Assembly: GCA_000165345.1 (NCBI GenBank)
Contig: CM000436.1
Coordinates: 128,001-192,000 of the forward strand
Direction of reading: 5' to 3'
DNA: 64,000 bases
Each line of letters opens with the position of its first letter. Positions within the stretch are counted from its first letter, which is position 1. Made by a program: the position numbers and the translations under genes. Under the pieces are notes generated by a model, which had not been told where the DNA came from, did no database searches, and was given only the letters and a program-made list of their open reading frames with translations. Of this stretch, positions 19,763-60,302 are shown in pieces.

Positions 19763-20740
19763 CTATTTTTGTTGAATCTCATCTTGAATTATAATAGATT
19801 CTACGGCTAAACCTATTTTAGAATATTCAGATTCTGAGTTAGAATTGAAATATTTAACTATATCACCAACAATATTATGACCCTCCTCTAAGAGCTGATG
19901 TTTACAGTTTTGATAGATGATCGCCCTTGTTTTTGGCATCATCTTTTTTAGCTTTGGAATTAATAAATCAGCAGGAACCATATCATCATACAGACCCAAA
20001 AAAAAGCATACTCCAGTTATTCCTCTTAATGAAATATATTTATCCATAAATACTTTAAGAGCTTGTTCATTTTCCCAGAAATCAAAACCTGTTACCACTC
20101 TACCAAAAGTTGATCGTAATTGTCTACCATAATATCTGTGCCTTAAATACCTCAAATTTACAATTTCTTGATTAATTTTTTCAGGATCATAGTAATCTTC
20201 CAATATATTATCTCTACTCTTTAATAGATATAATGGAAGTGAATTTTCAAAAAATCTAAAAACTCCTGGAAAATTTTTTAAAACAAAACTTTGTATTCCT
20301 GAGAGTGGCCTGCAAAAACAAGCTGGACATAAAGAAGCTACCTTAAGTACTTTCTCTGGATGGGCCCCTGCATAACATAAAGTCATTAAACCTCCCATGG
20401 AAATCCCAACTAAATATAATAACAATTTTTCTAAACCCAAATTTATTAACACTGTATCTACTTGTTTAATAAAATCATCAGTTGTCAATTTTCCAAAATA
20501 GTTCCAAGAAGAAAGTCCATGTCCAGGCATATCTATTCTCAGTACTGCTAAGCCTGACTTTAAACATTCAGTCTCTAACTGCTTGAAAGAAGAAATTGAG
20601 CTTAGTAAACCATGAAAGCATATTACCAAAGGACCTTTATATGCTGCCTTCTCAATATTTGGGAACGATAATGCATAGTTTATTCTTCCATTTGGGCCTT
20701 CTGTGAATTTCCCCTCTTCAAATTTATATTTAGATTCCAT
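19763..20740 (-). CDS. alpha/beta-hydrolase fold protein (lysophospholipase/monoglyceride-lipase-like), 325 aa
   Basis: The HG oxyanion motif lies in PLVICFHGLLSS. The nucleophile elbow G-x-S-x-G is GISMGG. A C-terminal NCKHQ is likely the catalytic His. The ORF is ATG-initiated and intronless. Confidence 0.6.
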   Translation of the reverse strand: MESKYKFEEGKFTEGPNGRINYALSFPNIEKAAYKGPLVICFHGLLSSISSFKQLETECLKSGLAVLRIDMPGHGLSSWNYFGKLTTDDFIKQVDTVLINLGLEKLLLYLVGISMGGLMTLCYAGAHPEKVLKVASLCPACFCRPLSGIQSFVLKNFPGVFRFFENSLPLYLLKSRDNILEDYYDPEKINQEIVNLRYLRHRYYGRQLRSTFGRVVTGFDFWENEQALKVFMDKYISLRGITGVCFFLGLYDDMVPADLLIPKLKKMMPKTRAIIYQNCKHQLLEEGHNIVGDIVKYFNSNSESEYSKIGLAVESIIIQDEIQQK

Positions 20741-35551: not shown

Positions 35552-36399
35552 ATGTCTGCAAAGAAAGGTAAGTTATTTTTTATAAATAATATATTTTGGT
35601 TGGTTGGCTAGTTGTATTATTGATTGATTGATTGATTGGTTGGTTAATTTCATCTATAAATCATCCATATTTGGTATATGATTCATCTTTCTATCAATGA
35701 AAGTAATTATAATTTACTTATATAATATATATTCTTTTTCTTTTTATGTCTATTTTAATTATATTTAATAAAAATAGACTAATAATAGAATGAGAATAAA
35801 TGTTAGATTATTATTTTAAGGTAAACTGATCAAATATACATTATATATTTATGTGATTTATAATTGAAATCAGTTTATTAATCAAGTTAATATTATTACA
35901 ACACAACCAACCTATACGATTTTGATAATATTTATTAATATTATTTATAGGTAATACAAAAGCATCATCTACATCTGCAACTAAGGCAAATGCTAAGAAG
36001 ACTGCTCAAGCAGTAAAGAACTCTAAAAGATCTTCAACAACAAAGATCAGAACAAGAGTTCAATTTTACAGACCAAAGACTTTGAAATTACAAAGAAATC
36101 CAAAGTATGAGAGAAAATCCATTAAGACACAAAAGAGTTTGGACTGCTATGATATTATTAAGAGGCCAATTACTACAGAATCTGCAATGAAGATGGTTGA
36201 AACTTTGAATACTATTGTATTTTTGGTTAATGAGAGAGCTAATAAGACTCAGATTAAGTATGCTGTTAACAAACTTTATGATGTTAAGGTTGCTAATGTT
36301 AATACTGTTAATACATTTGGGGATGGTAAGAAGGCATTTGTAAAGCTTTCCCCTGATGTTGAAGCTGTTGATGTAGCAAGCAGAATTGGAATTATTTAA
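35552..36399 (+). CDS. RPL23A: 60S ribosomal protein L23a (uL23), 154 aa; exons 35552..35567 and 35951..36399
   Basis: Exon 1 is ATG TCT GCA AAG AAA G, followed by the donor GTAAGT (35568–35573). The 383-bp AT-rich intron contains (GATT)n and (GGTT)n. The acceptor is AG at 35949–35950, and the splice gives G|GT = Gly. The protein is MSAKKGNTKASSTSATKANAKK...RTRVQFYRPKTLKLQRNPKYERKSIKTQKSLDCYDIIKRPITTESAMK...VNTFGDGKKAFVKLSPDVEAVDVASRIGII, colinear with L23a/L25 proteins. The stop is TAA at 36397–36399. Confidence 0.75.
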
Positions 36400-37294: not shown

Positions 37295-40200
37295 TTATGA
37301 TCTTAAGTTTTGTGTACAATAATTAACCAAAGCTACTAAGGCAGCTACTACTTTCTCCATGTTACTGATATTTTTCTGATTAACTTGAGAGGACTTGCAT
37401 ATAAAACAATTATTACACATTCCTCCACTAATGCTACTCACTTTTTGATTTGTAACTAAACATTTTCCAGATCCTCTTACAAATTTATCTAATGATTTTA
37501 AATTGGTTAAATCTGCTTCTGAAGCTTTAAGTAAGAGTTTCATAAGTTCTAAAACTTCTCTTTTGCAACCATCTTTGATTGAGAGTGAGTATTTTTCGAT
37601 GGTTTTTATAGAGATTTTTGATACATCCAAATTTTTTGTATCTAATGTTCCATTTGAATTAAACCTTAATTGGACTTGTTGGCCACCTGACGAAGTAGAT
37701 ATTTGTGGCTTTGGCTGTGGGTATGACGGTGGTTTTTGATATGGTGGTGGTATTTGTGGCTTTGATGGTGGGTATGACGGTGGCTTTTGGTATGGTGGTG
37801 GTATTTGTGGCTTTGGCTGTGGGTATGATGGTGGTTTTTGGTATGGTGGTGGTATTTGTGGCTTCGGTTGTGGGTATGACGGTGGCTTTTGATATGGCGG
37901 TGGCATTTGTGGCTTTGATGGTGGGTATGACGGTGGTTTTTGTGCTAATGGATCATCCGAAGGCATTAATCCTAAATTTGATTTTCCGATACCATCTTCC
38001 AGCAATCTGATTAGTTCTGACTTACTATGATTTACAGAATCAAATAATTCTTGTAAATTTTTAGTATCACCGCTCAAAGAAATATATTCTAAGTATTTTC
38101 CATAAACCTCTTTATCATTTGTCAAGTCTTCAACAGCTGATCTTTTTTTTCTTTTGATTTTAGTTCCCGGCAAAATAGGTACTTTTGGTCTAACAGCAGG
38201 ATCTGGCATTCCGTTTTTTTTTGTTGATACGCCAAATGAAGATGGTATGTTTTTAATAGAAGCTGGTGTTTTTCTCTTCTTTTCCCTTGATTCTTGATGA
38301 TTCTTTGCAATGGCTTCTTCCAAAGCTTCCAAAAGAGCTTCCTTACTATCATTTCCAGTCATTTGTATGAAATCAGCCAAATTTAAAGGTGAATCAGAAG
38401 ATGAGACTGTCCCTACATATTCTAAATACTTTTCTGTAACTTTCTCATCAACTTGCATGTAGTCGTATCCGGAACCAACGCCCCAGCCTCCCTCAGCTCC
38501 TCCGACTGCACCTCCCTCAGCTCCTCCAGTTGCACCTCCCTCAGCTCCTCCGACTGCACCTCCCTCAGCTCCTCCGACTGCACCTCCCCCAGCTCCTCCG
38601 ACTGCACCTCCCTCAGCTCCTCCGACTACACCTCCCTCAGCTCCTCCAGTTGCACCTCCCCCAGCTCCTCCACTCGCTCCAGCTCCTCCACCTACTCCTG
38701 CTCCTCCACCTACTCCTGCTCCTCCACTTGCACCTCCCTCAGCTCCACCACCTGCTAAACTTTGGCTATATTCACCCAGCATACTTAATAAAGCAGCTTT
38801 GTCATAGCCTGAAGCCTTAATCAACTCTTCCAAACTTAAAGAATTTCCTTGTACAATAGACATGTATGCAGCATAAGCCATTAAAACTTCTTCATCACTT
38901 TTAAGCGTACTAAGTAAATCTATTCCAACTTCTGCTCCTTCACCACCTCCACCTCCACCTCCACTAGCTGTGCTAAATAAATTTTGGATAAGCTCACGCA
39001 TTAAATTTAATAAGTAATCCTTATCATAATTTGAAATTTTAATCAAATATTTCAAATCTAAAGGATTTTCTACAGAAGAAGAATATAAATTATAAGTTTC
39101 TATAATTGCTTTATCTGCTAAGAAAACTTCAGCTAAATCAAGAACTTGTTCAGCTTTATCTTCTCGTTTCTTTTGTTCAGAAGGATCAACTGTTGATTGA
39201 GTTTCATTTTTTAAGTTTTGGATAAATATTTTTAAATAATCAACTATGCCATATTTTTCTTCCTTAGCTAAACCCTTAATCTCTTCCAAACTTAAAGCCG
39301 GCTCATCCTTAGTTAAACTTAAATAAACTCCATATAAATTCATTACTTCTTCATCATCTTCATTTGTTCCTTCTCCTCCTCCTGTTACTGCTACACCTCC
39401 TTCTATTCCGCCTGCTGATACAGGCTCATCATGTTGATAATTTTTATCTAAACTATGCTTGAAAAATTGTTTCATTTTACTATTAAACTGATCAATTTCA
39501 TCTTTAGTCACTTCCATACTTGATATAAGATTTCCTAAAGCACCTAAAATACGATTGTACAAACTATAATTAACATATTTTAGTTTGATAAATTCCTTGC
39601 ATATATCAAATAATATTTTACTTCTACGAATTGCTGCTTTATGTACCAAAATTTCTTTCTTTAAAATTTTATCTTCTTTTAGCTTATTAATAGCTTTGTT
39701 CTTCAGTTTTTCTTTTAAGCTAATTAATTTATTCCATTGTTCTCTTAAAGTACTTTCTATTTGTGTTAGATTCAAATCATTACAAATAAATGGAAAATTT
39801 CCCAAATCAAGTAATGATGGATGTATTAACTTTTTAATTGACAATTCTTCTCCAGAAAGATCAGAAATATGTTCCCAAGACGATCTATATTTATTCTTTT
39901 CTTTACAATTTTTCAAAAGATCATTTAATCTTTCCAAAATATCTAAAAATATATTTGAAAGTAAATTTTTTTTTAATATGCTTTCTCTGTAACAATAACT
40001 TTTATTATTTGCTCTGCCAATAGAAGAATTTAATCTAACCAATAATTCCGAAATTGTTGAAATTCTTCGATGAATTAGTAATATCAACTCTGAATTACAT
40101 CCTTCTAAATATTTTACTGCATATTCCACTTCCTTTGGTAATAAAAGTGACTTTAATTCTAGAGCTAAAGATTGAATATTTCTGTTTAAATCGCATCTTA

Positions 40201-43200
40201 AAAGTGTTACTAAATTTAAATGATCTAAAATTACATTTTCTGGAGGAGCTTCAATTAATAAATTTATTGGATAATTTCCTTCATCACCATCTCCTCCGCC
40301 AGATCCACTTGGAACTGTTGGTTCGTTTGAAACTGTTGGTTTGTTTGGAATTGTTGGTTTGTTTGGAACTGTCGGTTTGTTTGGAACTGTCGGTTCGTTT
40401 GGAACTGTTGGTTCATTTGGAACTATTGGTTTGTTTGGAACTGTTGGTTTGTTTGGAAATGTCGGTTCGTTTGGAATTGTTGGTTTGCTTGGAAACGTTG
40501 GTAATACTGGTACACCTCCTGGTATTCCACTTGGTCTTCCTGATGATCCAGGCCAAGCTGGAATTGTTGGTTTCCCTGGGGCTCCTGCTCCTGCTCCTGC
40601 TCCTGCTTCTGGTCCTGGTCCTGGTCCTGCTCCTGCTTCTGGTCCTGGTCCTGGTCCTGCTCCTGCTTCTGGTCCTGGTCCTGGTCCTGCTTCTGGTCCT
40701 GGTCCTGGTCCTGCTTCTGGTCCCGGTCCTGCTCCTGCTCCTGGAGAAGATTCTTCAGAATCAAAGAATGAAGAATCATCCACTGAAGAAACATCAGTTA
40801 AAGGAGGAACAAACCCTCCAGAAAGAGTTGAGAAAGAGCAACTCTGTGTTGGAATAAATTTAGGACTCATAATATCAACTGGTACAAACAAACCATGACC
40901 ACTAGCACTTTTATAAGCACTTGGAGATTTCAATTCACTCGTAAGTTTATACAACTCAAGCAAAAGCTTCAAAAACTCAGCAGAAAATATATACTTTTGA
41001 GCTTTAAACATGCTATTACTACTCAAGAAACTTGTATGTTGCAAACCCGTATCAGCTGAACTACTTATATTATTCTTTTCTACATTCAACCCAGAAATAG
41101 TTCGTACTTCTAAAATCTTCTTTAACAACTTCTCGAGAAATTCAACCAACTTATTAATACTCGGAGTCAAAATAGAAAAGTCTTCATAAACGAATGAAGA
41201 AACTAATCCCATAGTTAATTGATATATAGACAAATCTTTCAATTCTGATCCTCTTGTAGTTGTACTTCCATCCAAAGATTGAATTGCTGTCTCCAATAAT
41301 CCTTCATATTCTAACTTTGCTTTACAATCATTTATAACTTTAAGAAGTTCTTCTAATAAACCAGGAATAAAACTTGACAAAACCGTATAATTATTTGCAT
41401 GTTTTTTATCAAGTTTTTTCCCATTTTCCAATATCACTTCTAATTGCAAATATCTATAATATAATAATGCCAATACCAAACTGTGACACTTTTGATTACC
41501 TTCCACCAACTTTGCGTCATTATTCACTAACTGAGTAAGTGTACTCTTATCAATTGATTTAACTTTTATATTAAACTTCATGGGTGGTTTAATCTCTTTT
41601 GTTTTTACCATATGCATTGTTAAAAGAGCTGTTAACAAACTTAATTGAAATTTTAATGAAAAAAATTGTAAATTATATTGCTCTCTCGATTCAGGACTTT
41701 GAATTTGTTTCAATTTGTTTAATATATATTCAAAAGTTTTTAAAAGTTGCAAAATTCTTTCTAGTAACATTAAAATCATATTAGTAGTAAGATTTTTTGC
41801 AAGATTTGTTTGATCTGATATTGAAAACCATCTAAATAATACTTTAAGTGAAGATAAATCATCTGTTTCGTAATAATCTCTTGGTAATCTTGATACAACT
41901 GGAAACAAATTTTCATCAAAATCAAGATTCAAATTTTCATTATTTACAGTAAATCTTAATTCAACACATTTTCTATATACAAATTGTAAAACTGGTTGAA
42001 TTTGGCTGTATATTGCCCTAAACCTAATAAATTTATCATTTTCCACAGTAACTCCTGTTGTAGTTGTTTGTGTTTGACCATTTAAATTTTCGAATAATTT
42101 CTTTAATGGTATTTTATTAAATTCCTTAAATTTTTCCAATTCTTTTTTAAGCATTTCAAAACTAACTGCTTGACATATTTGAGGTAAAGCCGTTGTTATA
42201 AAACTATTTCTCTTTTCATCATAAAAGCAAAGCATCTGCAAAACTTCAGTAAATAATATGGATTTATTCAATATAGCTAAAGTATTTTTAAGTATCATAA
42301 TTCTCTGATCTAAGAAATTATCAGTATTTTTTAAATAATCCAAAATTTTCTTTTCAGATTCTAATTGATTTAGAATTACTGTTCTTTTGTAAAAATGTGA
42401 CTTTAAAGTCTTTTGAATCTTTTCAATTTGGATTTGAAACGAATCATTCAAACATTTTTTAAAATCAAAATTAATTAAAGCTTCCAATACTTGTGAAATT
42501 GAAGTTAATAATTTATCTGTAAACAAAATAAGAGTTTTTGGCTGAAAATAACTAATTACCAAATTTTTAGGATCAAGTTCTCTTTATTTTTGAGTTTGAA
42601 TATATAGTTCGTGTTTATTCATAGGTAATCGACTTGCATCCTTTAATCTTTGAATTCGTCGTTTTTCTCTAGCATGAGCCTTTTGCTTACGTCTCATTTG
42701 CAAATTATCTAGATCTTGTTGTGATCTACCAGAATAAGGACTTGTAAATGGTCTATACATGACATCTTCATTAGCTACTTTTCCAGTAAGAATATCCTTT
42801 CTATATTTGCATTTATCAAGTTTAAGTTGATATTTAACAATCCTAGAAGCAAGTTCTTTCATTTGTAAGTACAACCTTTTAATGGCATTAGCTCTTTTAT
42901 CACATACTTCGCATCTATTTCCTTTTTGTTTTTTAATATTAGGATTATGGCACGTATGACTATCATAATTGCTTTTAAGAATTTTGGAATTATCTTTAAT
43001 TTTATTAAATTCAGCAGTCAATTTTTCGATTTTTGACTCCAATTGAGCTATTAAAATTCTTATTTCATTTAACGGAATATTGCTTAAAGTCCAATGTGTA
43101 ATTTCATTTTCTATTGTTAATTTAGAATTCTGGCTAAATCCTGGAAATTTTAAATAACATAACTCACTTATAATGATATTGGATTTATTATTAAGAAAGA

Positions 43201-43270
43201 TACCATTTTTCTTATAATTTGCCAAAAATACACTTAACAAAAAGATTACAAAATTTAACCACGTATTCAT
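37295..43270 (-). CDS. family member A of a giant secreted modular repeat protein (about 1990 aa as one frame). A single in-frame TAA at 42584–42586 splits it into a 227-aa N-terminal piece (42587..43270) and a 1755-aa remainder (37295..42562). It may be a pseudogene or carry a sequencing error.
   Basis: The N-terminus is a signal peptide, MNTWLNFVIFLLSVFLANY. Track ORFs 42584..43270 and 37295..42562 lie in the same frame, separated only by the TAA and 7 codons. Paralog C (60303..62249) reads straight through the equivalent position (..LYIQSQKQREMDFQTLVISYFQPK..). The modules, N to C, are:
- a basic coiled-coil N-domain containing GNRCEVCDKRANAIKRL;
- a large helical domain;
- PGPEAG and PTVPN(K/E)P repeats;
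- a conserved central domain;
- Gly-rich linkers such as GGAEGGAVGG;
- four to five helical motifs of about 50 aa (..SLSLEELIKASGYDKAALLSML..);
- 16-aa repeats PPPYQKPPSYPQPKPQI, five copies;
- a C-terminal 4-Cys domain (..GCKREVLELMKLLLKASEADLTNLKSL..GSGKCLVTNQ..GGMCNNCFICKSS..LVNYCTQNLRS). Confidence 0.6.
37700..37960. repeat. coding minisatellite of about five 48-bp units, encoding the 16-aa repeat PPPYQKPPSYPQPKPQI of member A
   Basis: The unit ggtggtatttgtggctttg(g/a)(c/t)(t/g)gtgggtatgacggtgg(t/c)ttttg(a/g)tat is visibly reiterated on the plus strand. Confidence 0.8.
38465..38760. repeat. coding minisatellite with a 30-bp unit cctccgactgcacctccctcagct (GGAEGGAVGG)n in member A
   Basis: The tandem reiteration is visible in the sequence. 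The track shows ORFs in all frames there. Confidence 0.8.
40300..40745. repeat. two adjacent coding minisatellites in member A. The 21-bp unit ggaactgttggtttgtttgga is repeated about 10 times and encodes PTVPN(K/E)P heptads. The 18/24-bp cctggtcctggtcctgctcctgcttctggt units encode PGPGPEAG.
   Basis: The tandem reiteration is visible in the sequence. Confidence 0.8.
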
Positions 43271-45255: not shown

Positions 45256-48200
45256 TTATCTTGAGTTTTTTTTACAATATTCAACCAAAACTTCCAATGC
45301 AGCTACTATTTTCTCCATATTTCTGACATTTCTATTATTAACTCTAGAGGAGTTACATACAAAACAATTATTGCATGTTCCTCCACTTCCTGACCTTTGA
45401 TCTGTATTTAAACATCTTGCTGATCCTTTTAAAAATCGTTCCAATGACTTTAAATTATTTAAATCTGCTATTGAAACTTTGAGTAAATGTAATAAAAGAT
45501 TTAAAGTAGCATTTGAACAACCACTTCTAACTGAATTTGAATGTTTTTCAATGGTTTTTGTGGAAATACTTGATGTATCTAAATTAGTTTTATCTAATGT
45601 TCCATTAGGATTAAACTTTAATTGAACTTTGTGCGAACCAATGATTGAAGTCGGTATTTGTGATGGTTGTGATGGTTGTGACGGTTGTGGATATGCTGGT
45701 GGTTGAGGATATGCCGGTGGTTGTGATGGTTGTGGGTACCTTGGTGGCTGCGGATATGCCGGTGGTTGTGATGGTTGTGGGTACCTTGGTGGTTGCGGAT
45801 ATGGAGGCGGCTTTGATGGCTGTGGATATGCTGGTGGTTGAGGATATGCTGGTGGCTGTGATGGTTTTGAAGTTGATCGTGGTGGACGTGGCTTCGGCTG
45901 TGATGGACCAAATGAAGATAATATATCATTGATAGAGGAAGGCGCTGGTTTTCTTTTTGGTATTTCTGTTCTTGAAGCTTGATTATTCGTTTCAATAGCT
46001 TGTTGTAAAATTTGTAAAAGAGTTTCTTTATTTTGATTTCCTGGCATATCTATGAAATCAATCAAATCTAAAGGAGTATTTGGAGGCACTACTGATCTTA
46101 CATAATCTAAATAGTATTTCAATACAACTTCATCATTTAATAAGAGCCTGCTTTCATCATCCAAAGCTTCTCCTCCTTCTGCTCCTCCACTTGCTCCTGC
46201 TCCTCCACTTGCTCCTGCTCCCCCACCTGCTCCTGCTCCTCCACCTGCTCCTGCTCCTCCACCTGCTCCGCCTCCATAAACATTCCCTGTAGAATTTGTA
46301 TTATATTCACTTAAAATATCCAATAAAGTATTTTTATCGTAACCTGCAACTTCAATTAATTCTTTCAAACTCAAGGATTGTTTTACCATAGAAACATACA
46401 AAGCATAAGCTTCTAATACTTGTTCATCTGACATAAGAGCATTAATTAAACTTGATGCACTTGTTCCTTCTTCACCTTCATTATCATTTCTTCCTGGTGT
46501 TTCTCCATTTGTGTTATTATTTTGTGAAGTTTTGATAAATTCAATCATTAAAGATAATAAGTAACTTTTATCGTAACTTGAAAGTTCGATCAAATCTTCT
46601 AAATTTGAAGGATTCTCAACAACGGAAGAATATAAAGCATAAGTTTCCAAAACTTGTTGGTCATTTATTATAGATGAAACGATGTTATTAGTTGATTGAA
46701 CCCCATTTTTTAAGCTTTGAACAATATTTTTTAAATATTCAGATAAACTTTGCCCTTCTGCTGAAGCTAATTCCTTGATACTATTCAAACTTAAAGGCGC
46801 TTCACCAGTAGCTAAACTCAAATAAAATGCATATAAGTTTTGTATTTCTTCATCTTCATCAAGATTTTCTTCCTCCCCTGCTCCTCCACTTCCGCCTCCA
46901 CCTCCACTTCCGCCTCCACTTCCACTTCCGCCTCCACTTCCACCTCCACCAGCTCCTCCACTTCCACCTCCGCCTGCTCCTCCACCTCCGCCTGCTCCTC
47001 CACCTCCGCCTGCTCCTCCACCTCCACTTCCTCCTCCCGGCGTATATTCATCCAGATCTAACTTAAATAATCGCCTTATTTTATCATTAAGCTTATTAAC
47101 TTCAACGTTAGTTACTTTCATACTTGAATGAATATCTTTTAAAGCAGTTGAAACTTTATTAAATAAACTATTATTAACATATTGTAATTGCACAAATTCT
47201 TTACAAGCTTCAAGTAGTAATTTATTTCTTCTAACTGCTGCTTTATATATCAAAGTTTGTGTTTTTAAACTTTTAATATCTTTACTTTTGCTTACAATAC
47301 CCTTACTTTTAAGATTTTCTTTTAGATTTAATGTTTTATCCCATAATTTTTTTAAATAAATTTCTGCTTTTGGTAAATTTGAATCAACACAAGTAAATGG
47401 AAATCTTGCTAGTTTATTAAATGGTGGATATATTAAACTTTTAATTGAAGATTCTTCTCCCAAAAGACTAGTAATATGTTTCCAAGGCAATTTATATTTA
47501 TTCATTTCTTTACATTTATCTAAAATAGCATTTAATTTTCCCAAAATATCTAAAAATATATTTGAAAGTAAATTCCTCTTTAGTAAAGTTTCTTTGTAAC
47601 AAATACTTTTAGTATGTTTTATACTTGCACCATCAGAAGAACTTAATCTATTTATTAATTCCATTACTGTTGAAATTCTTTGATTTATAAGCAATAATAA
47701 TCCTAAATCACATCCTTGTAAATATCTTATTGCATATTCAACTTTTTTTGGTAATAACATTGATTTTAATTTCTCTGTCAAAGTTTGAATACTTCCTTCA
47801 AAATCACATCTCAAAATTACTGATAAATCCAAATTGTTCAAAATTTCAGATTCTGCATCAACTCCTTGAATTGTTACATCTATTGGATAATTTTGTGGAT
47901 CCTCTTCATTCTCATCATTTCCTATTCCAGACCCACCCGGTCTTTCTGGCCAACCTCCTCCACCACCACCTGCTCCACCGCTTGACCCTGGTAGTCCACT
48001 CCCTCCTGATTGACTTGGCATTTCTGGTTGAGTTGGTATTCCTGGTTGAGTTGGTATTCCTGGTTGAGTACCTGGAAATGCTGGAGCTCCTGGTCGAGTT
48101 GGCTTTCCACCAAATCCTTGAGCCCCTGGTAATACTGGCACTCCCCCAGGCACAGCAATAGGCTTTGATGCTTCTTGCCCACCTGGTCCGCTTGGAACTC

Positions 48201-48714
48201 CTGGTTTTGTTGTTCCTCCTGGCATTGCTGGTCCACTTGTTCCTCCTGGCATTCCTGGCCAACTTGGAACTACTGGTTTTGCTGGTCCACTTGGTCCTCC
48301 TGGTGTTGCTGGTCCTCCTGGCATTGCTGGTCCACTTGGTCCTCCTGGTATTCCTGGTCCTCCTGGTGTTCCTGGTCCTCCTGGTATTCCTGGTCCTCCC
48401 AGAACTCCTAAAATCAAATCTCCCGACGAACTAAATATTTCTGTAAAATCATTTGAATCTGAAAATAAATCAAAACCATATAATTGTTGTTCTGGTAATA
48501 TACCATTCTCCAATGGAAATGGAGGAAAAACAAATTCCATCAATTTTGGGAATAAATTCCAATTCATTGTCAAAAAATGTGGTTCTCCTTTATTTTCTAA
48601 TGAATTATATAATGTTAAAATTCCAAATCTAAAGCAATATTTTATTAATCCATGATAAACCTTACTTAAAGTTGATATTAAACTCATTTCATTCATACTT
48701 TGTTTATCTTTCAA
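45256..48714 (-). CDS. family member B of the same giant secreted modular repeat protein family; the 5' end is incomplete and continues into low-quality sequence and the gap
   Basis: The track ORF of 1152 aa stops at TAA 45256–45258. It shares domain order and many blocks with member A: the central domain ([32 protein letters not shown]..), the helical motifs, and the C-terminal 4-Cys domain (..[60 protein letters not shown]). Its repeat units differ from A: [12 protein letters not shown] runs, [11 protein letters not shown] 11-mers, and an N-terminal Gly-X-Pro tract. Upstream of 48714 the frame continues with A-like sequence (..NLRSRETSNDIFGG.. compared with ..ILEVRTISGLNVEKNNISS..) but is broken by n calls. 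The true start is therefore not in readable sequence. Confidence 0.55.
45650..45870. repeat. coding minisatellite with a 33-bp unit (ggttgtgatggttgtgggtaccttggtggctgcggatatgccggt type), encoding [11 protein letters not shown]-type 11-mers in member B
   Basis: The tandem reiteration is visible in the sequence. Confidence 0.75.
46170..47045. repeat. Gly/Ala/Ser-rich coding microsatellite blocks in member B (46170–46275 gctcctgctcctccacctgct units; 46880–47040 ccgcctccacttccacctcc units), separated by unique helical-motif coding sequence
   Basis: This is read directly. The units encode GGAGGGG and [12 protein letters not shown] runs. Confidence 0.7.
47930..48415. repeat. cctggt-based imperfect repeats encoding a Gly-X-Pro and (Ser/Ala)-X-Pro triplet tract ([42 protein letters not shown]...) near the readable N-terminus of member B
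   Basis: The tract consists of reiterated cctggtcctcctggt(a/g)ttcctggt units, with Pro at every third residue over about 45 codons. Confidence 0.7.
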
Positions 48715-49980
48715 ATTTTTTATTTCCTCTTTTCTTTCTTGAATTTTNTCCANTNNTGTACTGTAAATTCTTCAAAAATCTTCTTCTGNACATATATTTT
48801 GGNNCTATCTTCTCTTTTATTAAATAATTTTNTAAAACATTATCAATATGTATTATGTATTATTACTACTACTACCACCAAAAATATCATTACTTGTTTC
48901 TCTTGATCTTAAATTTAATTCATTCAACACTTCATTATTAATATTCAAATTTGAACTTTCTTTTGTTATNATTTTNTGAAATTGTTGTACGGAAAATCTC
49001 CTCTTTTAAAGGGTCATATGCTGATATTTGTCCNAAACCNTTATAATATTCAATTNTTCTCACACAACCNAATATTCCTGATGCANGAATAATCTANAGC
49101 TAAACTAANTCCAATCAATNNCTGATATTAATGTATAATAATTACAATTATTACNACNCTCTTNNATATNCCATCATGNAANGTGACTTGNNNTTCTCAT
49201 TCATACTTGAAACTGAATTTACATNCATTNATTCATNAAATNTACTTTCAAATNCTTGNCAATGNTGNNNCTATATGTTAATGNCTTAATAATTGATAAT
49301 TANNATAATNACNAGNTAATAAATGTCCAAATAAATTAATACCTGATGTNAAATCATAAANCATNTTATTTGATNTNTGTGATNCTAGAGATAAACCTTG
49401 TAATACAAATCTTGAAAAATNTTGTANTGAANGTAANATACTTTTGTGTCCAATATATATTTCATTAAATATTGTAATAGNCNTTTNCACATCTTTTAAT
49501 ANTATCTNGCTAANNATAATNATAAAGCTTCAATTATTANTAAAGTTCTNTACTGCTTCTTTTTTGNNATAGAATATTCACTTGAAACAANTTCTGGTGA
49601 TTNGAANTCCATAAAAGTATCCAATGNCTTACGTTTTTTTATTCTATCCCTTATTNATGNNAAAGANTNTATATGAGATTTTAATANNGATATATTAATA
49701 CTTGTACACATCGGGTAAACCTGCTAAATTTATTGCAAGATGATTTATTAGTGTATCTAANAATNTGGACAGATATGTATTCATTGTGTTGAATAATCAT
49801 ATTAATTCATCTGATANCAAATTATTNGNCCNTAAANGATCTTTCATGAAAGCCTTATCATAATCTGTTCTACGTTATTTTCAAACTGGACCATTTGNAC
49901 TAAATCATGNCCANTATTAAAGATTAGTAANNATTATCATCATCGNAGNCATTTTGAANAACCCANCCCCANCTGNCCCT

Positions 49981-52900
49981 NNANNNNNNNNNNNNNNNNN
50001 NNNNNNNNNNNNNNNNNNNNNNNNNNNNNNNNNNNNNNNNNNNNNNNNNNNNNNNNNNNNNNNNNNNNNNNNNNNNNNNNNNNNNNNNNNNNNNNNNNNN
50101 NNNNNNNNNNNNNNNNNNNNNNNNNNNNNNNNNNNNNNNNNNNNNNNNNNNNNNNNNNNNNNNNNNNNNNNNNNNNNNNNNNNNNNNNNNNNNNNNNNNN
50201 NNNNNNNNNNNNNNNNNNNNNNNNNNNNNNNNNNNNNNNNNNNNNNNNNNNNNNNNNNNNNNNNNNNNNNNNNNNNNNNNNNNNNNNNNNNNNNNNNNNN
50301 NNNNNNNNNNNNNNNNNNNNNNNNNNNNNNNNNNNNNNNNNNNNNNNNNNNNNNNNNNNNNNNNNNNNNNNNNNNNNNNNNNNNNNNNNNNNNNNNNNNN
50401 NNNNNNNNNNNNNNNNNNNNNNNNNNNNNNNNNNNNNNNNNNNNNNNNNNNNNNNNNNNNNNNNNNNNNNNNNNNNNNNNNNNNNNNNNNNNNNNNNNNN
50501 NNNNNNNNNNNNNNNNNNNNNNNNNNNNNNNNNNNNNNNNNNNNNNNNNNNNNNNNNNNNNNNNNNNNNNNNNNNNNNNNNNNNNNNNNNNNNNNNNNNN
50601 NNNNNNNNNNNNNNNNNNNNNNNNNNNNNNNNNNNNNNNNNNNNNNNNNNNNNNNNNNNNNNNNNNNNNNNNNNNNNNNNNNNNNNNNNNNNNNNNNNNN
50701 NNNNNNNNNNNNNNNNNNNNNNNNNNNNNNNNNNNNNNNNNNNNNNNNNNNNNNNNNNNNNNNNNNNNNNNNNNNNNNNNNNNNNNNNNNNNNNNNNNNN
50801 NNNNNNNNNNNNNNNNNNNNNNNNNNNNNNNNNNNNNNNNNNNNNNNNNNNNNNNNNNNNNNNNNNNNNNNNNNNNNNNNNNNNNNNNNNNNNNNNNNNN
50901 NNNNNNNNNNNNNNNNNNNNNNNNNNNNNNNNNNNNNNNNNNNNNNNNNNNNNNNNNNNNNNNNNNNNNNNNNNNNNNNNNNNNNNNNNNNNNNNNNNNN
51001 NNNNNNNNNNNNNNNNNNNNNNNNNNNNNNNNNNNNNNNNNNNNNNNNNNNNNNNNNNNNNNNNNNNNNNNNNNNNNNNNNNNNNNNNNNNNNNNNNNNN
51101 NNNNNNNNNNNNNNNNNNNNNNNNNNNNNNNNNNNNNNNNNNNNNNNNNNNNNNNNNNNNNNNNNNNNNNNNNNNNNNNNNNNNNNNNNNNNNNNNNNNN
51201 NNNNNNNNNNNNNNNNNNNNNNNNNNNNNNNNNNNNNNNNNNNNNNNNNNNNNNNNNNNNNNNNNNNNNNNNNNNNNNNNNNNNNNNNNNNNNNNNNNNN
51301 NNNNNNNNNNNNNNNNNNNNNNNNNNNNNNNNNNNNNNNNNNNNNNNNNNNNNNNNNNNNNNNNNNNNNNNNNNNNNNNNNNNNNNNNNNNNNNNNNNNN
51401 NNNNNNNNNNNNNNNNNNNNNNNNNNNNNNNNNNNNNNNNNNNNNNNNNNNNNNNNNNNNNNNNNNNNNNNNNNNNNNNNNNNNNNNNNNNNNNNNNNNN
51501 NNNNNNNNNNNNNNNNNNNNNNNNNNNNNNNNNNNNNNNNNNNNNNNNNNNNNNNNNNNNNNNNNNNNNNNNNNNNNNNNNNNNNNNNNNNNNNNNNNNN
51601 NNNNNNNNNNNNNNNNNNNNNNNNNNNNNNNNNNNNNNNNNNNNNNNNNNNNNNNNNNNNNNNNNNNNNNNNNNNNNNNNNNNNNNNNNNNNNNNNNNNN
51701 NNNNNNNNNNNNNNNNNNNNNNNNNNNNNNNNNNNNNNNNNNNNNNNNNNNNNNNNNNNNNNNNNNNNNNNNNNNNNNNNNNNNNNNNNNNNNNNNNNNN
51801 NNNNNNNNNNNNNNNNNNNNNNNNNNNNNNNNNNNNNNNNNNNNNNNNNNNNNNNNNNNNNNNNNNNNNNNNNNNNNNNNNNNNNNNNNNNNNNNNNNNN
51901 NNNNNNNNNNNNNNNNNNNNNNNNNNNNNNNNNNNNNNNNNNNNNNNNNNNNNNNNNNNNNNNNNNNNNNNNNNNNNNNNNNNNNNNNNNNNNNNNNNNN
52001 NNNNNNNNNNNNNNNNNNNNNNNNNNNNNNNNNNNNNNNNNNNNNNNNNNNNNNNNNNNNNNNNNNNNNNNNNNNNNNNNNNNNNNNNNNNNNNNNNNNN
52101 NNNNNNNNNNNNNNNNNNNNNNNNNNNNNNNNNNNNNNNNNNNNNNNNNNNNNNNNNNNNNNNNNNNNNNNNNNNNNNNNNNNNNNNNNNNNNNNNNNNN
52201 NNNNNNNNNNNNNNNNNNNNNNNNNNNNNNNNNNNNNNNNNNNNNNNNNNNNNNNNNNNNNNNNNNNNNNNNNNNNNNNNNNNNNNNNNNNNNNNNNNNN
52301 NNNNNNNNNNNNNNNNNNNNNNNNNNNNNNNNNNNNNNNNNNNNNNNNNNNNNNNNNNNNNNNNNNNNNNNNNNNNNNNNNNNNNNNNNNNNNNNNNNNN
52401 NNNNNNNNNNNNNNNNNNNNNNNNNNNNNNNNNNNNNNNNNNNNNNNNNNNNNNNNNNNNNNNNNNNNNNNNNNNNNNNNNNNNNNNNNNNNNNNNNNNN
52501 NNNNNNNNNNNNNNNNNNNNNNNNNNNNNNNNNNNNNNNNNNNNNNNNNNNNNNNNNNNNNNNNNNNNNNNNNNNNNNNNNNNNNNNNNNNNNNNNNNNN
52601 NNNNNNNNNNNNNNNNNNNNNNNNNNNNNNNNNNNNNNNNNNNNNNNNNNNNNNNNNNNNNNNNNNNNNNNNNNNNNNNNNNNNNNNNNNNNNNNNNNNN
52701 NNNNNNNNNNNNNNNNNNNNNNNNNNNNNNNNNNNNNNNNNNNNNNNNNNNNNNNNNNNNNNNNNNNNNNNNNNNNNNNNNNNNNNNNNNNNNNNNNNNN
52801 NNNNNNNNNNNNNNNNNNNNNNNNNNNNNNNNNNNNNNNNNNNNNNNNNNNNNNNNNNNNNNNNNNNNNNNNNNNNNNNNNNNNNNNNNNNNNNNNNNNN

Positions 52901-55900
52901 NNNNNNNNNNNNNNNNNNNNNNNNNNNNNNNNNNNNNNNNNNNNNNNNNNNNNNNNNNNNNNNNNNNNNNNNNNNNNNNNNNNNNNNNNNNNNNNNNNNN
53001 NNNNNNNNNNNNNNNNNNNNNNNNNNNNNNNNNNNNNNNNNNNNNNNNNNNNNNNNNNNNNNNNNNNNNNNNNNNNNNNNNNNNNNNNNNNNNNNNNNNN
53101 NNNNNNNNNNNNNNNNNNNNNNNNNNNNNNNNNNNNNNNNNNNNNNNNNNNNNNNNNNNNNNNNNNNNNNNNNNNNNNNNNNNNNNNNNNNNNNNNNNNN
53201 NNNNNNNNNNNNNNNNNNNNNNNNNNNNNNNNNNNNNNNNNNNNNNNNNNNNNNNNNNNNNNNNNNNNNNNNNNNNNNNNNNNNNNNNNNNNNNNNNNNN
53301 NNNNNNNNNNNNNNNNNNNNNNNNNNNNNNNNNNNNNNNNNNNNNNNNNNNNNNNNNNNNNNNNNNNNNNNNNNNNNNNNNNNNNNNNNNNNNNNNNNNN
53401 NNNNNNNNNNNNNNNNNNNNNNNNNNNNNNNNNNNNNNNNNNNNNNNNNNNNNNNNNNNNNNNNNNNNNNNNNNNNNNNNNNNNNNNNNNNNNNNNNNNN
53501 NNNNNNNNNNNNNNNNNNNNNNNNNNNNNNNNNNNNNNNNNNNNNNNNNNNNNNNNNNNNNNNNNNNNNNNNNNNNNNNNNNNNNNNNNNNNNNNNNNNN
53601 NNNNNNNNNNNNNNNNNNNNNNNNNNNNNNNNNNNNNNNNNNNNNNNNNNNNNNNNNNNNNNNNNNNNNNNNNNNNNNNNNNNNNNNNNNNNNNNNNNNN
53701 NNNNNNNNNNNNNNNNNNNNNNNNNNNNNNNNNNNNNNNNNNNNNNNNNNNNNNNNNNNNNNNNNNNNNNNNNNNNNNNNNNNNNNNNNNNNNNNNNNNN
53801 NNNNNNNNNNNNNNNNNNNNNNNNNNNNNNNNNNNNNNNNNNNNNNNNNNNNNNNNNNNNNNNNNNNNNNNNNNNNNNNNNNNNNNNNNNNNNNNNNNNN
53901 NNNNNNNNNNNNNNNNNNNNNNNNNNNNNNNNNNNNNNNNNNNNNNNNNNNNNNNNNNNNNNNNNNNNNNNNNNNNNNNNNNNNNNNNNNNNNNNNNNNN
54001 NNNNNNNNNNNNNNNNNNNNNNNNNNNNNNNNNNNNNNNNNNNNNNNNNNNNNNNNNNNNNNNNNNNNNNNNNNNNNNNNNNNNNNNNNNNNNNNNNNNN
54101 NNNNNNNNNNNNNNNNNNNNNNNNNNNNNNNNNNNNNNNNNNNNNNNNNNNNNNNNNNNNNNNNNNNNNNNNNNNNNNNNNNNNNNNNNNNNNNNNNNNN
54201 NNNNNNNNNNNNNNNNNNNNNNNNNNNNNNNNNNNNNNNNNNNNNNNNNNNNNNNNNNNNNNNNNNNNNNNNNNNNNNNNNNNNNNNNNNNNNNNNNNNN
54301 NNNNNNNNNNNNNNNNNNNNNNNNNNNNNNNNNNNNNNNNNNNNNNNNNNNNNNNNNNNNNNNNNNNNNNNNNNNNNNNNNNNNNNNNNNNNNNNNNNNN
54401 NNNNNNNNNNNNNNNNNNNNNNNNNNNNNNNNNNNNNNNNNNNNNNNNNNNNNNNNNNNNNNNNNNNNNNNNNNNNNNNNNNNNNNNNNNNNNNNNNNNN
54501 NNNNNNNNNNNNNNNNNNNNNNNNNNNNNNNNNNNNNNNNNNNNNNNNNNNNNNNNNNNNNNNNNNNNNNNNNNNNNNNNNNNNNNNNNNNNNNNNNNNN
54601 NNNNNNNNNNNNNNNNNNNNNNNNNNNNNNNNNNNNNNNNNNNNNNNNNNNNNNNNNNNNNNNNNNNNNNNNNNNNNNNNNNNNNNNNNNNNNNNNNNNN
54701 NNNNNNNNNNNNNNNNNNNNNNNNNNNNNNNNNNNNNNNNNNNNNNNNNNNNNNNNNNNNNNNNNNNNNNNNNNNNNNNNNNNNNNNNNNNNNNNNNNNN
54801 NNNNNNNNNNNNNNNNNNNNNNNNNNNNNNNNNNNNNNNNNNNNNNNNNNNNNNNNNNNNNNNNNNNNNNNNNNNNNNNNNNNNNNNNNNNNNNNNNNNN
54901 NNNNNNNNNNNNNNNNNNNNNNNNNNNNNNNNNNNNNNNNNNNNNNNNNNNNNNNNNNNNNNNNNNNNNNNNNNNNNNNNNNNNNNNNNNNNNNNNNNNN
55001 NNNNNNNNNNNNNNNNNNNNNNNNNNNNNNNNNNNNNNNNNNNNNNNNNNNNNNNNNNNNNNNNNNNNNNNNNNNNNNNNNNNNNNNNNNNNNNNNNNNN
55101 NNNNNNNNNNNNNNNNNNNNNNNNNNNNNNNNNNNNNNNNNNNNNNNNNNNNNNNNNNNNNNNNNNNNNNNNNNNNNNNNNNNNNNNNNNNNNNNNNNNN
55201 NNNNNNNNNNNNNNNNNNNNNNNNNNNNNNNNNNNNNNNNNNNNNNNNNNNNNNNNNNNNNNNNNNNNNNNNNNNNNNNNNNNNNNNNNNNNNNNNNNNN
55301 NNNNNNNNNNNNNNNNNNNNNNNNNNNNNNNNNNNNNNNNNNNNNNNNNNNNNNNNNNNNNNNNNNNNNNNNNNNNNNNNNNNNNNNNNNNNNNNNNNNN
55401 NNNNNNNNNNNNNNNNNNNNNNNNNNNNNNNNNNNNNNNNNNNNNNNNNNNNNNNNNNNNNNNNNNNNNNNNNNNNNNNNNNNNNNNNNNNNNNNNNNNN
55501 NNNNNNNNNNNNNNNNNNNNNNNNNNNNNNNNNNNNNNNNNNNNNNNNNNNNNNNNNNNNNNNNNNNNNNNNNNNNNNNNNNNNNNNNNNNNNNNNNNNN
55601 NNNNNNNNNNNNNNNNNNNNNNNNNNNNNNNNNNNNNNNNNNNNNNNNNNNNNNNNNNNNNNNNNNNNNNNNNNNNNNNNNNNNNNNNNNNNNNNNNNNN
55701 NNNNNNNNNNNNNNNNNNNNNNNNNNNNNNNNNNNNNNNNNNNNNNNNNNNNNNNNNNNNNNNNNNNNNNNNNNNNNNNNNNNNNNNNNNNNNNNNNNNN
55801 NNNNNNNNNNNNNNNNNNNNNNNNNNNNNNNNNNNNNNNNNNNNNNNNNNNNNNNNNNNNNNNNNNNNNNNNNNNNNNNNNNNNNNNNNNNNNNNNNNNN

Positions 55901-58900
55901 NNNNNNNNNNNNNNNNNNNNNNNNNNNNNNNNNNNNNNNNNNNNNNNNNNNNNNNNNNNNNNNNNNNNNNNNNNNNNNNNNNNNNNNNNNNNNNNNNNNN
56001 NNNNNNNNNNNNNNNNNNNNNNNNNNNNNNNNNNNNNNNNNNNNNNNNNNNNNNNNNNNNNNNNNNNNNNNNNNNNNNNNNNNNNNNNNNNNNNNNNNNN
56101 NNNNNNNNNNNNNNNNNNNNNNNNNNNNNNNNNNNNNNNNNNNNNNNNNNNNNNNNNNNNNNNNNNNNNNNNNNNNNNNNNNNNNNNNNNNNNNNNNNNN
56201 NNNNNNNNNNNNNNNNNNNNNNNNNNNNNNNNNNNNNNNNNNNNNNNNNNNNNNNNNNNNNNNNNNNNNNNNNNNNNNNNNNNNNNNNNNNNNNNNNNNN
56301 NNNNNNNNNNNNNNNNNNNNNNNNNNNNNNNNNNNNNNNNNNNNNNNNNNNNNNNNNNNNNNNNNNNNNNNNNNNNNNNNNNNNNNNNNNNNNNNNNNNN
56401 NNNNNNNNNNNNNNNNNNNNNNNNNNNNNNNNNNNNNNNNNNNNNNNNNNNNNNNNNNNNNNNNNNNNNNNNNNNNNNNNNNNNNNNNNNNNNNNNNNNN
56501 NNNNNNNNNNNNNNNNNNNNNNNNNNNNNNNNNNNNNNNNNNNNNNNNNNNNNNNNNNNNNNNNNNNNNNNNNNNNNNNNNNNNNNNNNNNNNNNNNNNN
56601 NNNNNNNNNNNNNNNNNNNNNNNNNNNNNNNNNNNNNNNNNNNNNNNNNNNNNNNNNNNNNNNNNNNNNNNNNNNNNNNNNNNNNNNNNNNNNNNNNNNN
56701 NNNNNNNNNNNNNNNNNNNNNNNNNNNNNNNNNNNNNNNNNNNNNNNNNNNNNNNNNNNNNNNNNNNNNNNNNNNNNNNNNNNNNNNNNNNNNNNNNNNN
56801 NNNNNNNNNNNNNNNNNNNNNNNNNNNNNNNNNNNNNNNNNNNNNNNNNNNNNNNNNNNNNNNNNNNNNNNNNNNNNNNNNNNNNNNNNNNNNNNNNNNN
56901 NNNNNNNNNNNNNNNNNNNNNNNNNNNNNNNNNNNNNNNNNNNNNNNNNNNNNNNNNNNNNNNNNNNNNNNNNNNNNNNNNNNNNNNNNNNNNNNNNNNN
57001 NNNNNNNNNNNNNNNNNNNNNNNNNNNNNNNNNNNNNNNNNNNNNNNNNNNNNNNNNNNNNNNNNNNNNNNNNNNNNNNNNNNNNNNNNNNNNNNNNNNN
57101 NNNNNNNNNNNNNNNNNNNNNNNNNNNNNNNNNNNNNNNNNNNNNNNNNNNNNNNNNNNNNNNNNNNNNNNNNNNNNNNNNNNNNNNNNNNNNNNNNNNN
57201 NNNNNNNNNNNNNNNNNNNNNNNNNNNNNNNNNNNNNNNNNNNNNNNNNNNNNNNNNNNNNNNNNNNNNNNNNNNNNNNNNNNNNNNNNNNNNNNNNNNN
57301 NNNNNNNNNNNNNNNNNNNNNNNNNNNNNNNNNNNNNNNNNNNNNNNNNNNNNNNNNNNNNNNNNNNNNNNNNNNNNNNNNNNNNNNNNNNNNNNNNNNN
57401 NNNNNNNNNNNNNNNNNNNNNNNNNNNNNNNNNNNNNNNNNNNNNNNNNNNNNNNNNNNNNNNNNNNNNNNNNNNNNNNNNNNNNNNNNNNNNNNNNNNN
57501 NNNNNNNNNNNNNNNNNNNNNNNNNNNNNNNNNNNNNNNNNNNNNNNNNNNNNNNNNNNNNNNNNNNNNNNNNNNNNNNNNNNNNNNNNNNNNNNNNNNN
57601 NNNNNNNNNNNNNNNNNNNNNNNNNNNNNNNNNNNNNNNNNNNNNNNNNNNNNNNNNNNNNNNNNNNNNNNNNNNNNNNNNNNNNNNNNNNNNNNNNNNN
57701 NNNNNNNNNNNNNNNNNNNNNNNNNNNNNNNNNNNNNNNNNNNNNNNNNNNNNNNNNNNNNNNNNNNNNNNNNNNNNNNNNNNNNNNNNNNNNNNNNNNN
57801 NNNNNNNNNNNNNNNNNNNNNNNNNNNNNNNNNNNNNNNNNNNNNNNNNNNNNNNNNNNNNNNNNNNNNNNNNNNNNNNNNNNNNNNNNNNNNNNNNNNN
57901 NNNNNNNNNNNNNNNNNNNNNNNNNNNNNNNNNNNNNNNNNNNNNNNNNNNNNNNNNNNNNNNNNNNNNNNNNNNNNNNNNNNNNNNNNNNNNNNNNNNN
58001 NNNNNNNNNNNNNNNNNNNNNNNNNNNNNNNNNNNNNNNNNNNNNNNNNNNNNNNNNNNNNNNNNNNNNNNNNNNNNNNNNNNNNNNNNNNNNNNNNNNN
58101 NNNNNNNNNNNNNNNNNNNNNNNNNNNNNNNNNNNNNNNNNNNNNNNNNNNNNNNNNNNNNNNNNNNNNNNNNNNNNNNNNNNNNNNNNNNNNNNNNNNN
58201 NNNNNNNNNNNNNNNNNNNNNNNNNNNNNNNNNNNNNNNNNNNNNNNNNNNNNNNNNNNNNNNNNNNNNNNNNNNNNNNNNNNNNNNNNNNNNNNNNNNN
58301 NNNNNNNNNNNNNNNNNNNNNNNNNNNNNNNNNNNNNNNNNNNNNNNNNNNNNNNNNNNNNNNNNNNNNNNNNNNNNNNNNNNNNNNNNNNNNNNNNNNN
58401 NNNNNNNNNNNNNNNNNNNNNNNNNNNNNNNNNNNNNNNNNNNNNNNNNNNNNNNNNNNNNNNNNNNNNNNNNNNNNNNNNNNNNNNNNNNNNNNNNNNN
58501 NNNNNNNNNNNNNNNNNNNNNNNNNNNNNNNNNNNNNNNNNNNNNNNNNNNNNNNNNNNNNNNNNNNNNNNNNNNNNNNNNNNNNNNNNNNNNNNNNNNN
58601 NNNNNNNNNNNNNNNNNNNNNNNNNNNNNNNNNNNNNNNNNNNNNNNNNNNNNNNNNNNNNNNNNNNNNNNNNNNNNNNNNNNNNNNNNNNNNNNNNNNN
58701 NNNNNNNNNNNNNNNNNNNNNNNNNNNNNNNNNNNNNNNNNNNNNNNNNNNNNNNNNNNNNNNNNNNNNNNNNNNNNNNNNNNNNNNNNNNNNNNNNNNN
58801 NNNNNNNNNNNNNNNNNNNNNNNNNNNNNNNNNNNNNNNNNNNNNNNNNNNNNNNNNNNNNNNNNNNNNNNNNNNNNNNNNNNNNNNNNNNNNNNNNNNN

Positions 58901-59983
58901 NNNNNNNNNNNNNNNNNNNNNNNNNNNNNNNNNNNNNNNNNNNNNNNNNNNNNNNNNNNNNNNNNNNNNNNNNNNNNNNNNNNNNNNNNNNNNNNNNNNN
59001 NNNNNNNNNNNNNNNNNNNNNNNNNNNNNNNNNNNNNNNNNNNNNNNNNNNNNNNNNNNNNNNNNNNNNNNNNNNNNNNNNNNNNNNNNNNNNNNNNNNN
59101 NNNNNNNNNNNNNNNNNNNNNNNNNNNNNNNNNNNNNNNNNNNNNNNNNNNNNNNNNNNNNNNNNNNNNNNNNNNNNNNNNNNNNNNNNNNNNNNNNNNN
59201 NNNNNNNNNNNNNNNNNNNNNNNNNNNNNNNNNNNNNNNNNNNNNNNNNNNNNNNNNNNNNNNNNNNNNNNNNNNNNNNNNNNNNNNNNNNNNNNNNNNN
59301 NNNNNNNNNNNNNNNNNNNNNNNNNNNNNNNNNNNNNNNNNNNNNNNNNNNNNNNNNNNNNNNNNNNNNNNNNNNNNNNNNNNNNNNNNNNNNNNNNNNN
59401 NNNNNNNNNNNNNNNNNNNNNNNNNNNNNNNNNNNNNNNNNNNNNNNNNNNNNNNNNNNNNNNNNNNNNNNNNNNNNNNNNNNNNNNNNNNNNNNNNNNN
59501 NNNNNNNNNNNNNNNNNNNNNNNNNNNNNNNNNNNNNNNNNNNNNNNNNNNNNNNNNNNNNNNNNNNNNNNNNNNNNNNNNNNNNNNNNNNNNNNNNNNN
59601 NNNNNNNNNNNNNNNNNNNNNNNNNNNNNNNNNNNNNNNNNNNNNNNNNNNNNNNNNNNNNNNNNNNNNNNNNNNNNNNNNNNNNNNNNNNNNNNNNNNN
59701 NNNNNNNNNNNNNNNNNNNNNNNNNNNNNNNNNNNNNNNNNNNNNNNNNNNNNNNNNNNNNNNNNNNNNNNNNNNNNNNNNNNNNNNNNNNNNNNNNNNN
59801 NNNNNNNNNNNNNNNNNNNNNNNNNNNNNNNNNNNNNNNNNNNNNNNNNNNNNNNNNNNNNNNNNNNNNNNNNNNNNNNNNNNNNNNNNNNNNNNNNNNN
59901 NNNNNNNNNNNNNNNNNNNNNNNNNNNNNNNNNNNNNNNNNNNNNNNNNNNNNNNNNNNNNNNNNNNNNNNNNNNNNNNNNNN
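49981..59983. other. assembly gap: a run of exactly 10,000 N (49984–59983). It is preceded by about 1.3 kb riddled with single n calls (48748–49980) and followed by about 100 bp of atypical composition (59984–60084).
   Basis: This is read directly from the sequence. A 10,000-N run is a conventional placeholder of unknown true length. Confidence 0.95.
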
Positions 59984-60302
59984 ATAAACTCGACCTAACA
60001 ACATATACCCCNAAGGTCCGTGAAAGCCATAACCTTAATGTAGGTACCCTTTCCAAGGTAACCTGGAATACTTTGGAATCATAATTTAATTAGTAATTCC
60101 CCCAAAATAAAACTATTTGTTAATATCTGGAGTTAACTTAACTAAATCATCTTGATAAAATGAAGAAATTAATCCCATTGGTTAATTGATATAAAGATAA
60201 ATCTTTTAAATCTGATTTATTACTTTTATCATCCAATAATTTTATTAAATCTAATATTGGATCCAATTTTAATCTTGATTCACAATCTGTTCATATCTCT
60301 GT

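Follow-up and report, generated by a model that had tools for sequence, protein, structure and literature searches.

Two genes on chromosome 8 of Cryptosporidium parvum, cgd8_660_670 and cgd8_680_690, have been described as a pair of tandem low-complexity secreted proteins at a locus that contains a 10-kb gap (PMC4407392, PMC4637869, PMC6532270). The merged names came into use in later papers, and published comparisons report that the second copy of the pair is absent from C. hominis and other species, which carry a single copy, and that chipmunk genotype I has lost cgd8_660_670. The window analyzed here is a stretch of 64,000 nucleotides from chromosome 8 of C. parvum Iowa II (assembly GCA_000165345.1, contig CM000436.1, positions 128,001 to 192,000; ~28% G+C), and it includes this locus. 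In the window, cgd8_660_670 is split by a single in-frame TAA at codon 229. Comparison of alleles, orthologs and paralogs makes it very probable that this stop is a nonsense allele of recent, lineage-specific origin, carried by a redundant and fast-evolving paralog that is decaying, and so a case of ordinary gene decay. The locus, the paralogy and the merged gene names were already known, and the stop, its GAA origin and the allelic series of independent lesions are undescribed in the passages covered. In the literature on these genes (relevant passages and one supplement, with CryptoDB notes and most supplementary tables lying outside), no reason for the split was given, and E229*, GAA ancestry and allelic lesions were not mentioned; literature on premature stops in C. 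parvum, on run ERR14760746 and on the assembly accessions used below yielded nothing specific.

Other described systems also resemble this arrangement in part. Birth-and-death families of parasite secreted genes share with cgd8_660_670 tandem duplication, a high ratio of nonsynonymous to synonymous substitution rates (dN/dS), loss of copies in particular lineages and a number of disabling mutations that arose independently in one redundant copy; here, however, each C. parvum allele examined has exactly one lesion, and selection and drift are not separated. Programmed readthrough genes (viral gag-pol UAG, eukaryotic UGA-CUAG extensions) likewise have a long open frame beyond an in-frame stop, but the stop in cgd8_660_670 is unconserved, is of the UAA-A type and has no downstream structure, and the 'extension' is the ancestral gene body. 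Ciliate-type codes, in which TAA and TAG specify Gln, share with this locus a TAA opposite a paralog CAA and an AT-rich protist genome. In contrast to such codes, cgd8_660_670 has 1 internal TAA in 1992 codons, its neighbours stop at TAA, TAG and TGA, and the orthologous codon is GAA. A reassigned code with TAA as sense, which the earlier note had also thought unlikely, was rejected: the 13 open reading frames (ORFs) examined in the window, this gene included and eleven of them neighbouring genes, end in TAA (8), TAG (4) or TGA (1).

The genes annotated as cgd8_670 and cgd8_660 are one gene, later renamed cgd8_660_670 (member A in an earlier note on this DNA, in which member B is cgd8_680 and member C is cgd8_690). 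On sequence grounds it has ~1,990 codons and belongs to a Cryptosporidium-specific family whose large, predicted secreted, low-complexity ('mucin-like') proteins are encoded in tandem on chromosome 8. It occupies a place in the tandem array, contains low-complexity repeats and has the homologous N-terminal module, which follows a hydrophobic signal-like segment; its identity to cgd8_690 is 58% across 640 aa. The N-terminal module also aligns with that of the third tandem paralog (cgd8_700, member D) and with C. ubiquitum, C. canis and C. xiaoi. The family lies in tandem between L23a/Mcl1 and myosin, and this order is syntenic in C. tyzzeri, in the IOWA-BGF and IOWA-ATCC assemblies (hereafter BGF and ATCC) and in GCA_048859185.1.

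The upstream ORF (cgd8_670, XP_625526; window 42587–43270, minus strand) encodes an N-terminal segment that is hydrophobic and signal-like, a conserved N-terminal module in which a C-x-x-C motif occurs, and a linker of basic character. It had been given as 227 aa; positions 43270–42587 hold 228 sense codons, and the 228-aa product corresponds to XP_625526, QOY39817 and WRK33813 (cgd8_670). The premature TAA follows at window 42584–42586 (minus strand; TTA on the plus strand), where the minus-strand reading is CTA TAT ATT CAA ACT CAA AAA TAA AGA GAA CTT GAT CCT (LYIQTQK*RELDPK). The downstream ORF (cgd8_660; 37295–42583, minus strand) comprises 1762 sense codons and a terminal TAA at 37295–37297; it has no further lesion and encodes repeats rich in Gly, Pro and Ala as well as a C-terminal region that contains Cys. 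Both ORFs share one frame, and the 1992-codon reading stops only at codon 229 and at its end. The probability of a 1762-codon open run by chance at this composition was ~3e-68. In the GenBank gene models a 1667-aa 'cgd8_660' product starts at the first in-frame ATG past the stop (42296–42298, minus strand), and this product would be without the signal-peptide N-terminus. On these points of description the earlier note held: the single TAA splitting the gene, the shared frame, the CAA in the paralog (TTG on the plus strand at 61554–61556) and the paralog peptide that it quoted (LYIQSQKQREMDFQTLVISYFQ) were all recovered.

The codon-229 TAA is present in IOWA-lineage DNA and is not a sequencing artefact. 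The 601 nt around the stop, the TAA included, were 100% identical in CP044415.1 (ATCC) and CP141125.1 (BGF), two independent long-read assemblies, and the exact 228-aa product is encoded by both. The ATCC copy is likewise 5976 nt long, differs from the window in one base (42224) and has no stop other than codon 229 before its end at codon 1992. All 3 TAA-bearing assemblies (Iowa II Sanger, ATCC, BGF) are IOWA-derived, and they represent independent sequencing efforts, not independent isolates. A 49-nt pattern spanning the stop had 0 matches in metagenomes.

To place the change, further alleles of cgd8_660_670 were compared from C. tyzzeri (the sister species), from a 1.7-kb Logan contig (ERR14760746_10177, run ERR14760746, 99.3% identical to the window) and from GCA_048859185.1, a fourth C. 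parvum chromosome assembly. Codon 229 was GAA (Glu) in all three. The equivalent codon was CAA in C. ubiquitum DNA and in the C. parvum paralog cgd8_690. In remoter homologs the residue varied (Gly in C. canis, Leu in cgd8_700) and was always sense within a continuous protein; C. canis, C. xiaoi and KAF7456826 each had a sense residue at the stop site in single proteins of 1900–2957 aa. Because the other alleles have GAA, and orthologs and paralogs a sense codon, the stop was taken to be derived in the IOWA lineage. The most parsimonious event is GAA to TAA (Glu229 to stop), a G-to-T transversion on the coding strand that corresponds to C to A at plus-strand 42586. The earlier note had taken CAA as the mutated codon, implying a CAA-to-TAA transition, and had proposed a C/T polymorphism at plus-strand 42586; neither held, as the orthologous alleles read GAA and the alleles found at that base are A (IOWA) and C (others). 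Gene conversion from the paralog was ruled out as the source of the stop, since the bases flanking IOWA codon 229 agree with the other alleles of this gene and not with the paralog.

One further base of the gene sets the window apart. The third base of codon 349 (window 42224) is T in Iowa II, which gives Phe, and G in ATCC, GCA_048859185.1, the Logan contig and C. tyzzeri, which gives Leu, the residue also encoded by the paralog. The T is either private to the stock sequenced in 2004 or a base error of the Sanger era.

Different lesions were found in the same gene in other lineages. GCA_048859185.1 has no stop at codon 229, but carries E590* (GAA to TAA; window 41501–41503, minus strand), an independent nonsense allele at a codon for which Iowa II, ATCC, C. 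tyzzeri and C. hominis TU502 all have GAA. For TU502, only the first 361 nt of the contig match cgd8_660_670 (codons ~500–619), with codon 229 outside the match. In the Logan contig, an AA dinucleotide within an A-run (window 42926–42927, minus strand) is deleted, with a frameshift at ~codon 114; 117 aa are called, then 343 aa in another frame. In C. tyzzeri 7 indels shift the frame, among them two tandem duplications of 5 nt and insertions of a single base that lie outside long homopolymers, and its annotation of the gene is fragmented into 50-, 216-, 739- and 406-aa pieces. The flanking C. tyzzeri genes (myosin, Mcl1, L23a) are intact, and the species is without a cgd8_680_690 copy. Its cgd8_700 ortholog (locus ~4270–9030) is scattered across many reading frames. 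The whole mucin-like family appears eroded in mouse-adapted C. tyzzeri while the flanking genes are intact.

The annotation of GCA_048859185.1 was also inspected. It gives a 1965-aa product out of a 5928-nt span, so that 30 nt of coding sequence have been dropped. The sole frame-keeping 30-nt GT...AG interval over the codon-590 TAA is gene nt 1761–1790 (locus 20234–20263, window 41481–41510). This omission is presumably a gene-prediction artefact that conceals the premature stop. An exact look-up of the reconstructed 1965-aa product in the protein collection gave no match, and the placement of the dropped 30 nt rests on the GT...AG inference.

Substitution patterns were then compared on either side of the stop. 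Between cgd8_660_670 and its paralog cgd8_690, dN/dS was 0.51 for codons 1–228, 0.49 for codons 230–660, and 0.41 for the 120 codons straddling the stop (171–290). As dN/dS is ~0.5 on either side, the sequence across the stop shows the substitution pattern of genuine coding sequence within the family. Against C. tyzzeri, dN/dS was 0.91 (55 nonsynonymous and 16 synonymous changes). Published values served as the neighbour control; for C. hominis compared with C. parvum, the source gives 0.77 for cgd8_660 and 0–0.39 for neighbouring genes (Isaza et al. Table S5, PMC4637869). The Mcl1 comparison covered a poorly conserved C-terminal tail and was a poor control. Between IOWA and GCA_048859185.1, all 7 single nucleotide polymorphisms (SNPs) in the gene were missense or nonsense, and they fell within 1.1 kb (window 41503–42586), at ~10x the density of the flanks (9 SNPs per 16 kb). 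The neutral probability of at least 2 nonsense changes among 7 SNPs was 0.03–0.07, a suggestive but post hoc and weak comparison. At codons 431, 433 and 488 the GCA_048859185.1 allele has the residue of the cgd8_690 paralog, which hints at possible gene conversion between the tandem paralogs.

Other explanations of the stop were weighed against these data. A base-call or assembly error, the first option in the earlier note, would suit the draft, a Sanger sequence of 2004 in which a 10-kb N gap has N-peppered edges, and the window does have its private base at 42224, unlike every other allele. The stop, however, is 6 kb away from the low-quality zone, and the TAA was exactly reproduced in two later IOWA genomes that were independently sequenced and assembled (CP044415.1 and CP141125.1), so this option can be practically dismissed. 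Programmed or leaky readthrough (or recoding), the third option in the earlier note, would give a full-length protein despite the TAA; the downstream ORF is intact and shares the frame of the upstream ORF, and a near-cognate tRNA could in principle supply Gln, Glu, Lys or Tyr. The context of the stop is AAA-UAA-AGA, not a leaky type (UGA-C, UAG-CARYYA or similar), and in eukaryotes termination is most efficient at UAA with a purine after it. No stimulatory 3' structure was found in the RNA: the stretch of 141 nt around and beyond the stop has a less stable fold than shuffles (minimum free energy −10.4 kcal/mol, shuffle mean −16.1, z = +1.9). Among the alleles examined the stop is IOWA-only, with a sense codon in all other alleles, paralogs and orthologs, and therefore no conserved signal. 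Readthrough was considered very improbable on this evidence.

It may also be asked if the nonsense allele is real and both halves are used, with the 228-aa module secreted and the downstream ORF expressed by an internal promoter or by reinitiation at the ATG at 42298. GenBank has the locus as two genes in this way (cgd8_670 and cgd8_660), ATCC and BGF are annotated with separate models of 228 aa and 1667 aa, the N-terminal module is conserved between species, and the downstream ORF is still intact, although a young mutation predicts an intact downstream ORF equally. Such a functional split is nevertheless improbable, as the 1667-aa product begins in the middle of a conserved region, without the signal-like N-terminus of every full-length homolog, and its first ATG lies 96 codons (286 nt) beyond the stop. 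The breaks elsewhere (at codon ~114, at codon 590 and as multiple frameshifts), moreover, lie at unrelated positions, unlike what a selected two-gene arrangement would give. Lastly, a cryptic intron could remove the TAA by splicing of a GT...AG interval with the frame kept. There are 75 frame-preserving GT...AG intervals that span the stop, the best candidate being GTAAGC...TTTTGTTTACAG (window 42690–42517, 174 nt), and the GCA_048859185.1 annotation dropped 30 nt of coding sequence around its own codon-590 stop. Yet the candidate encodes 58 residues that are conserved in frame in cgd8_690 and C. ubiquitum, coding is continuous in the GAA alleles, and chance GT/AG pairs are plentiful in AT-rich DNA. 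Cryptosporidium genes are mostly intronless, and splicing across the stop was regarded as extremely unlikely.

A recent nonsense mutation, leaving a pseudogene or a truncated gene, was the remaining option of the earlier note, and is the part of its interpretation that stood: every other allele, ortholog and paralog examined has a sense codon, the downstream ORF is still open, and the gene is broken differently elsewhere. A G-to-T change at the first base of codon 229 made GAA (Glu) into TAA in the IOWA lineage. Under this reading, translation would end there and leave at most a 228-residue fragment, consisting of the signal-like segment and the conserved N-terminal module, with the repeat regions and the Cys-containing C-terminus lost. 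The annotated 1667-aa 'gene' would be the orphaned remainder, without a signal peptide and probably with no functional product. The mutation is probably young, because no second lesion is found across the 1762 downstream codons. Its effect would be tolerated through redundancy, because the intact extra paralog cgd8_680_690 (3228 aa in ATCC) and cgd8_700 are present. Decay of a redundant, fast-evolving paralog is suggested because the same gene bears different disabling lesions in other lineages.

Several points count against nonsense decay, or narrow it. Given the shared IOWA descent of the TAA-bearing assemblies, the TAA is established for that lineage and not for the species. Loss of the full-length protein is inferred from sequence (a search of supplementary data for expression entries found none), and a secreted 228-aa N-terminal fragment could retain activity. 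The 2-nt deletion of the Logan contig sits in an A-run. The dN/dS value against C. tyzzeri is built on few substitutions (71), and a fast-evolving surface antigen would give a high dN/dS too. It is also conceivable, although unlikely, that the repeated independent knock-outs reflect selection to lose a secreted mucin-like protein (escape from host recognition or host adaptation) and not drift.

In the window the cgd8_680_690 paralog is interrupted by the Iowa II assembly gap. Its N-terminal part (cgd8_690; 60303–62249, minus strand) contains the CAA at 61554–61556, and its C-terminal part (cgd8_680; 45256–48714, minus strand) is joined to it in ATCC. There, cgd8_690 and cgd8_680 form one uninterrupted 3228-aa ORF (locus 10001–19687), and the ~4.3 kb between the annotated pieces are all coding. 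The placeholder gap of 10,000 N occupies 49984–59983, with low-quality, N-peppered edges from 48748. The window stop of cgd8_690 at 60303 falls in the N-peppered gap edge (low-quality zone 48748–60012). At the protein level the 648-aa window ORF is identical to cpbgf_800690 [Cryptosporidium parvum] / XP_626979 (cgd8_690), and the 647-aa cgd8_690 piece is still labelled 'partial' in GenBank. The 3' end of cgd8_700 (63361–64000, minus strand) leaves the window; in ATCC this gene has a 1924-codon open frame, and its GenBank model is 1910 aa. In BGF, cgd8_700 and cgd8_680_690 are each read as two ORFs through 1-nt deletions in A-runs (ATCC-locus positions 5272, 5301 and 14049), and tight clusters of A-to-C/T differences from ATCC were seen at ATCC-locus positions 15198–15294 and 19983–20022. 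These BGF–ATCC differences look like homopolymer or polishing errors, or could be real divergence of IOWA sub-lines.

A Pfam search of the family members found no domain in any. Homology searches with the N-terminal 668 aa, with 229 aa around the stop and with the conserved mid-region matched nothing beyond cgd8_690, a protein of C. ubiquitum and a single C. tyzzeri fragment; the word-index protein search is nearly blind to this mucin-like family, and full-length C. hominis and C. meleagridis orthologs were not among the matches. The housekeeping genes within the window include RPN1, RFC1, Mcl1/Ctf4 and ribosomal protein L23a. The L23a gene (35552–36399) has two exons, with a 16-nt first exon, a 383-nt GTAAGT...TATAG intron and a 154-aa product; the product length agrees with the annotation in other assemblies, and the gene is a local example of a real intron. 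Isolated N calls at 16548–16576, within RPN1 and far from the large gap, mark a small low-quality patch of the draft.

The case is of a standard type, polymorphic pseudogenisation of a redundant, fast-evolving secreted gene, and its chief use is annotation correction. The two 'genes' of the reference annotations (the 228-aa cgd8_670 and the 1667-aa cgd8_660) come from a single gene that a strain-specific stop has cut in two, and ortholog tables, secretome counts and dN/dS screens are affected by the split models. Window 42586 A/C, 41503 C/A and the AA indel at 42926–42927 are lineage-marking variants. IOWA, the strain behind most experimental work, is probably without the full-length mucin-like product, and other isolates would be without it for different reasons. 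This is relevant to studies of the family as a host-specificity or vaccine candidate, and advises caution with the IOWA reference strain. Should the recurrent losses prove to be selected, the biology would be modestly interesting, and cgd8_660_670 would mark, and might determine, differences between C. parvum lineages in host range or virulence.

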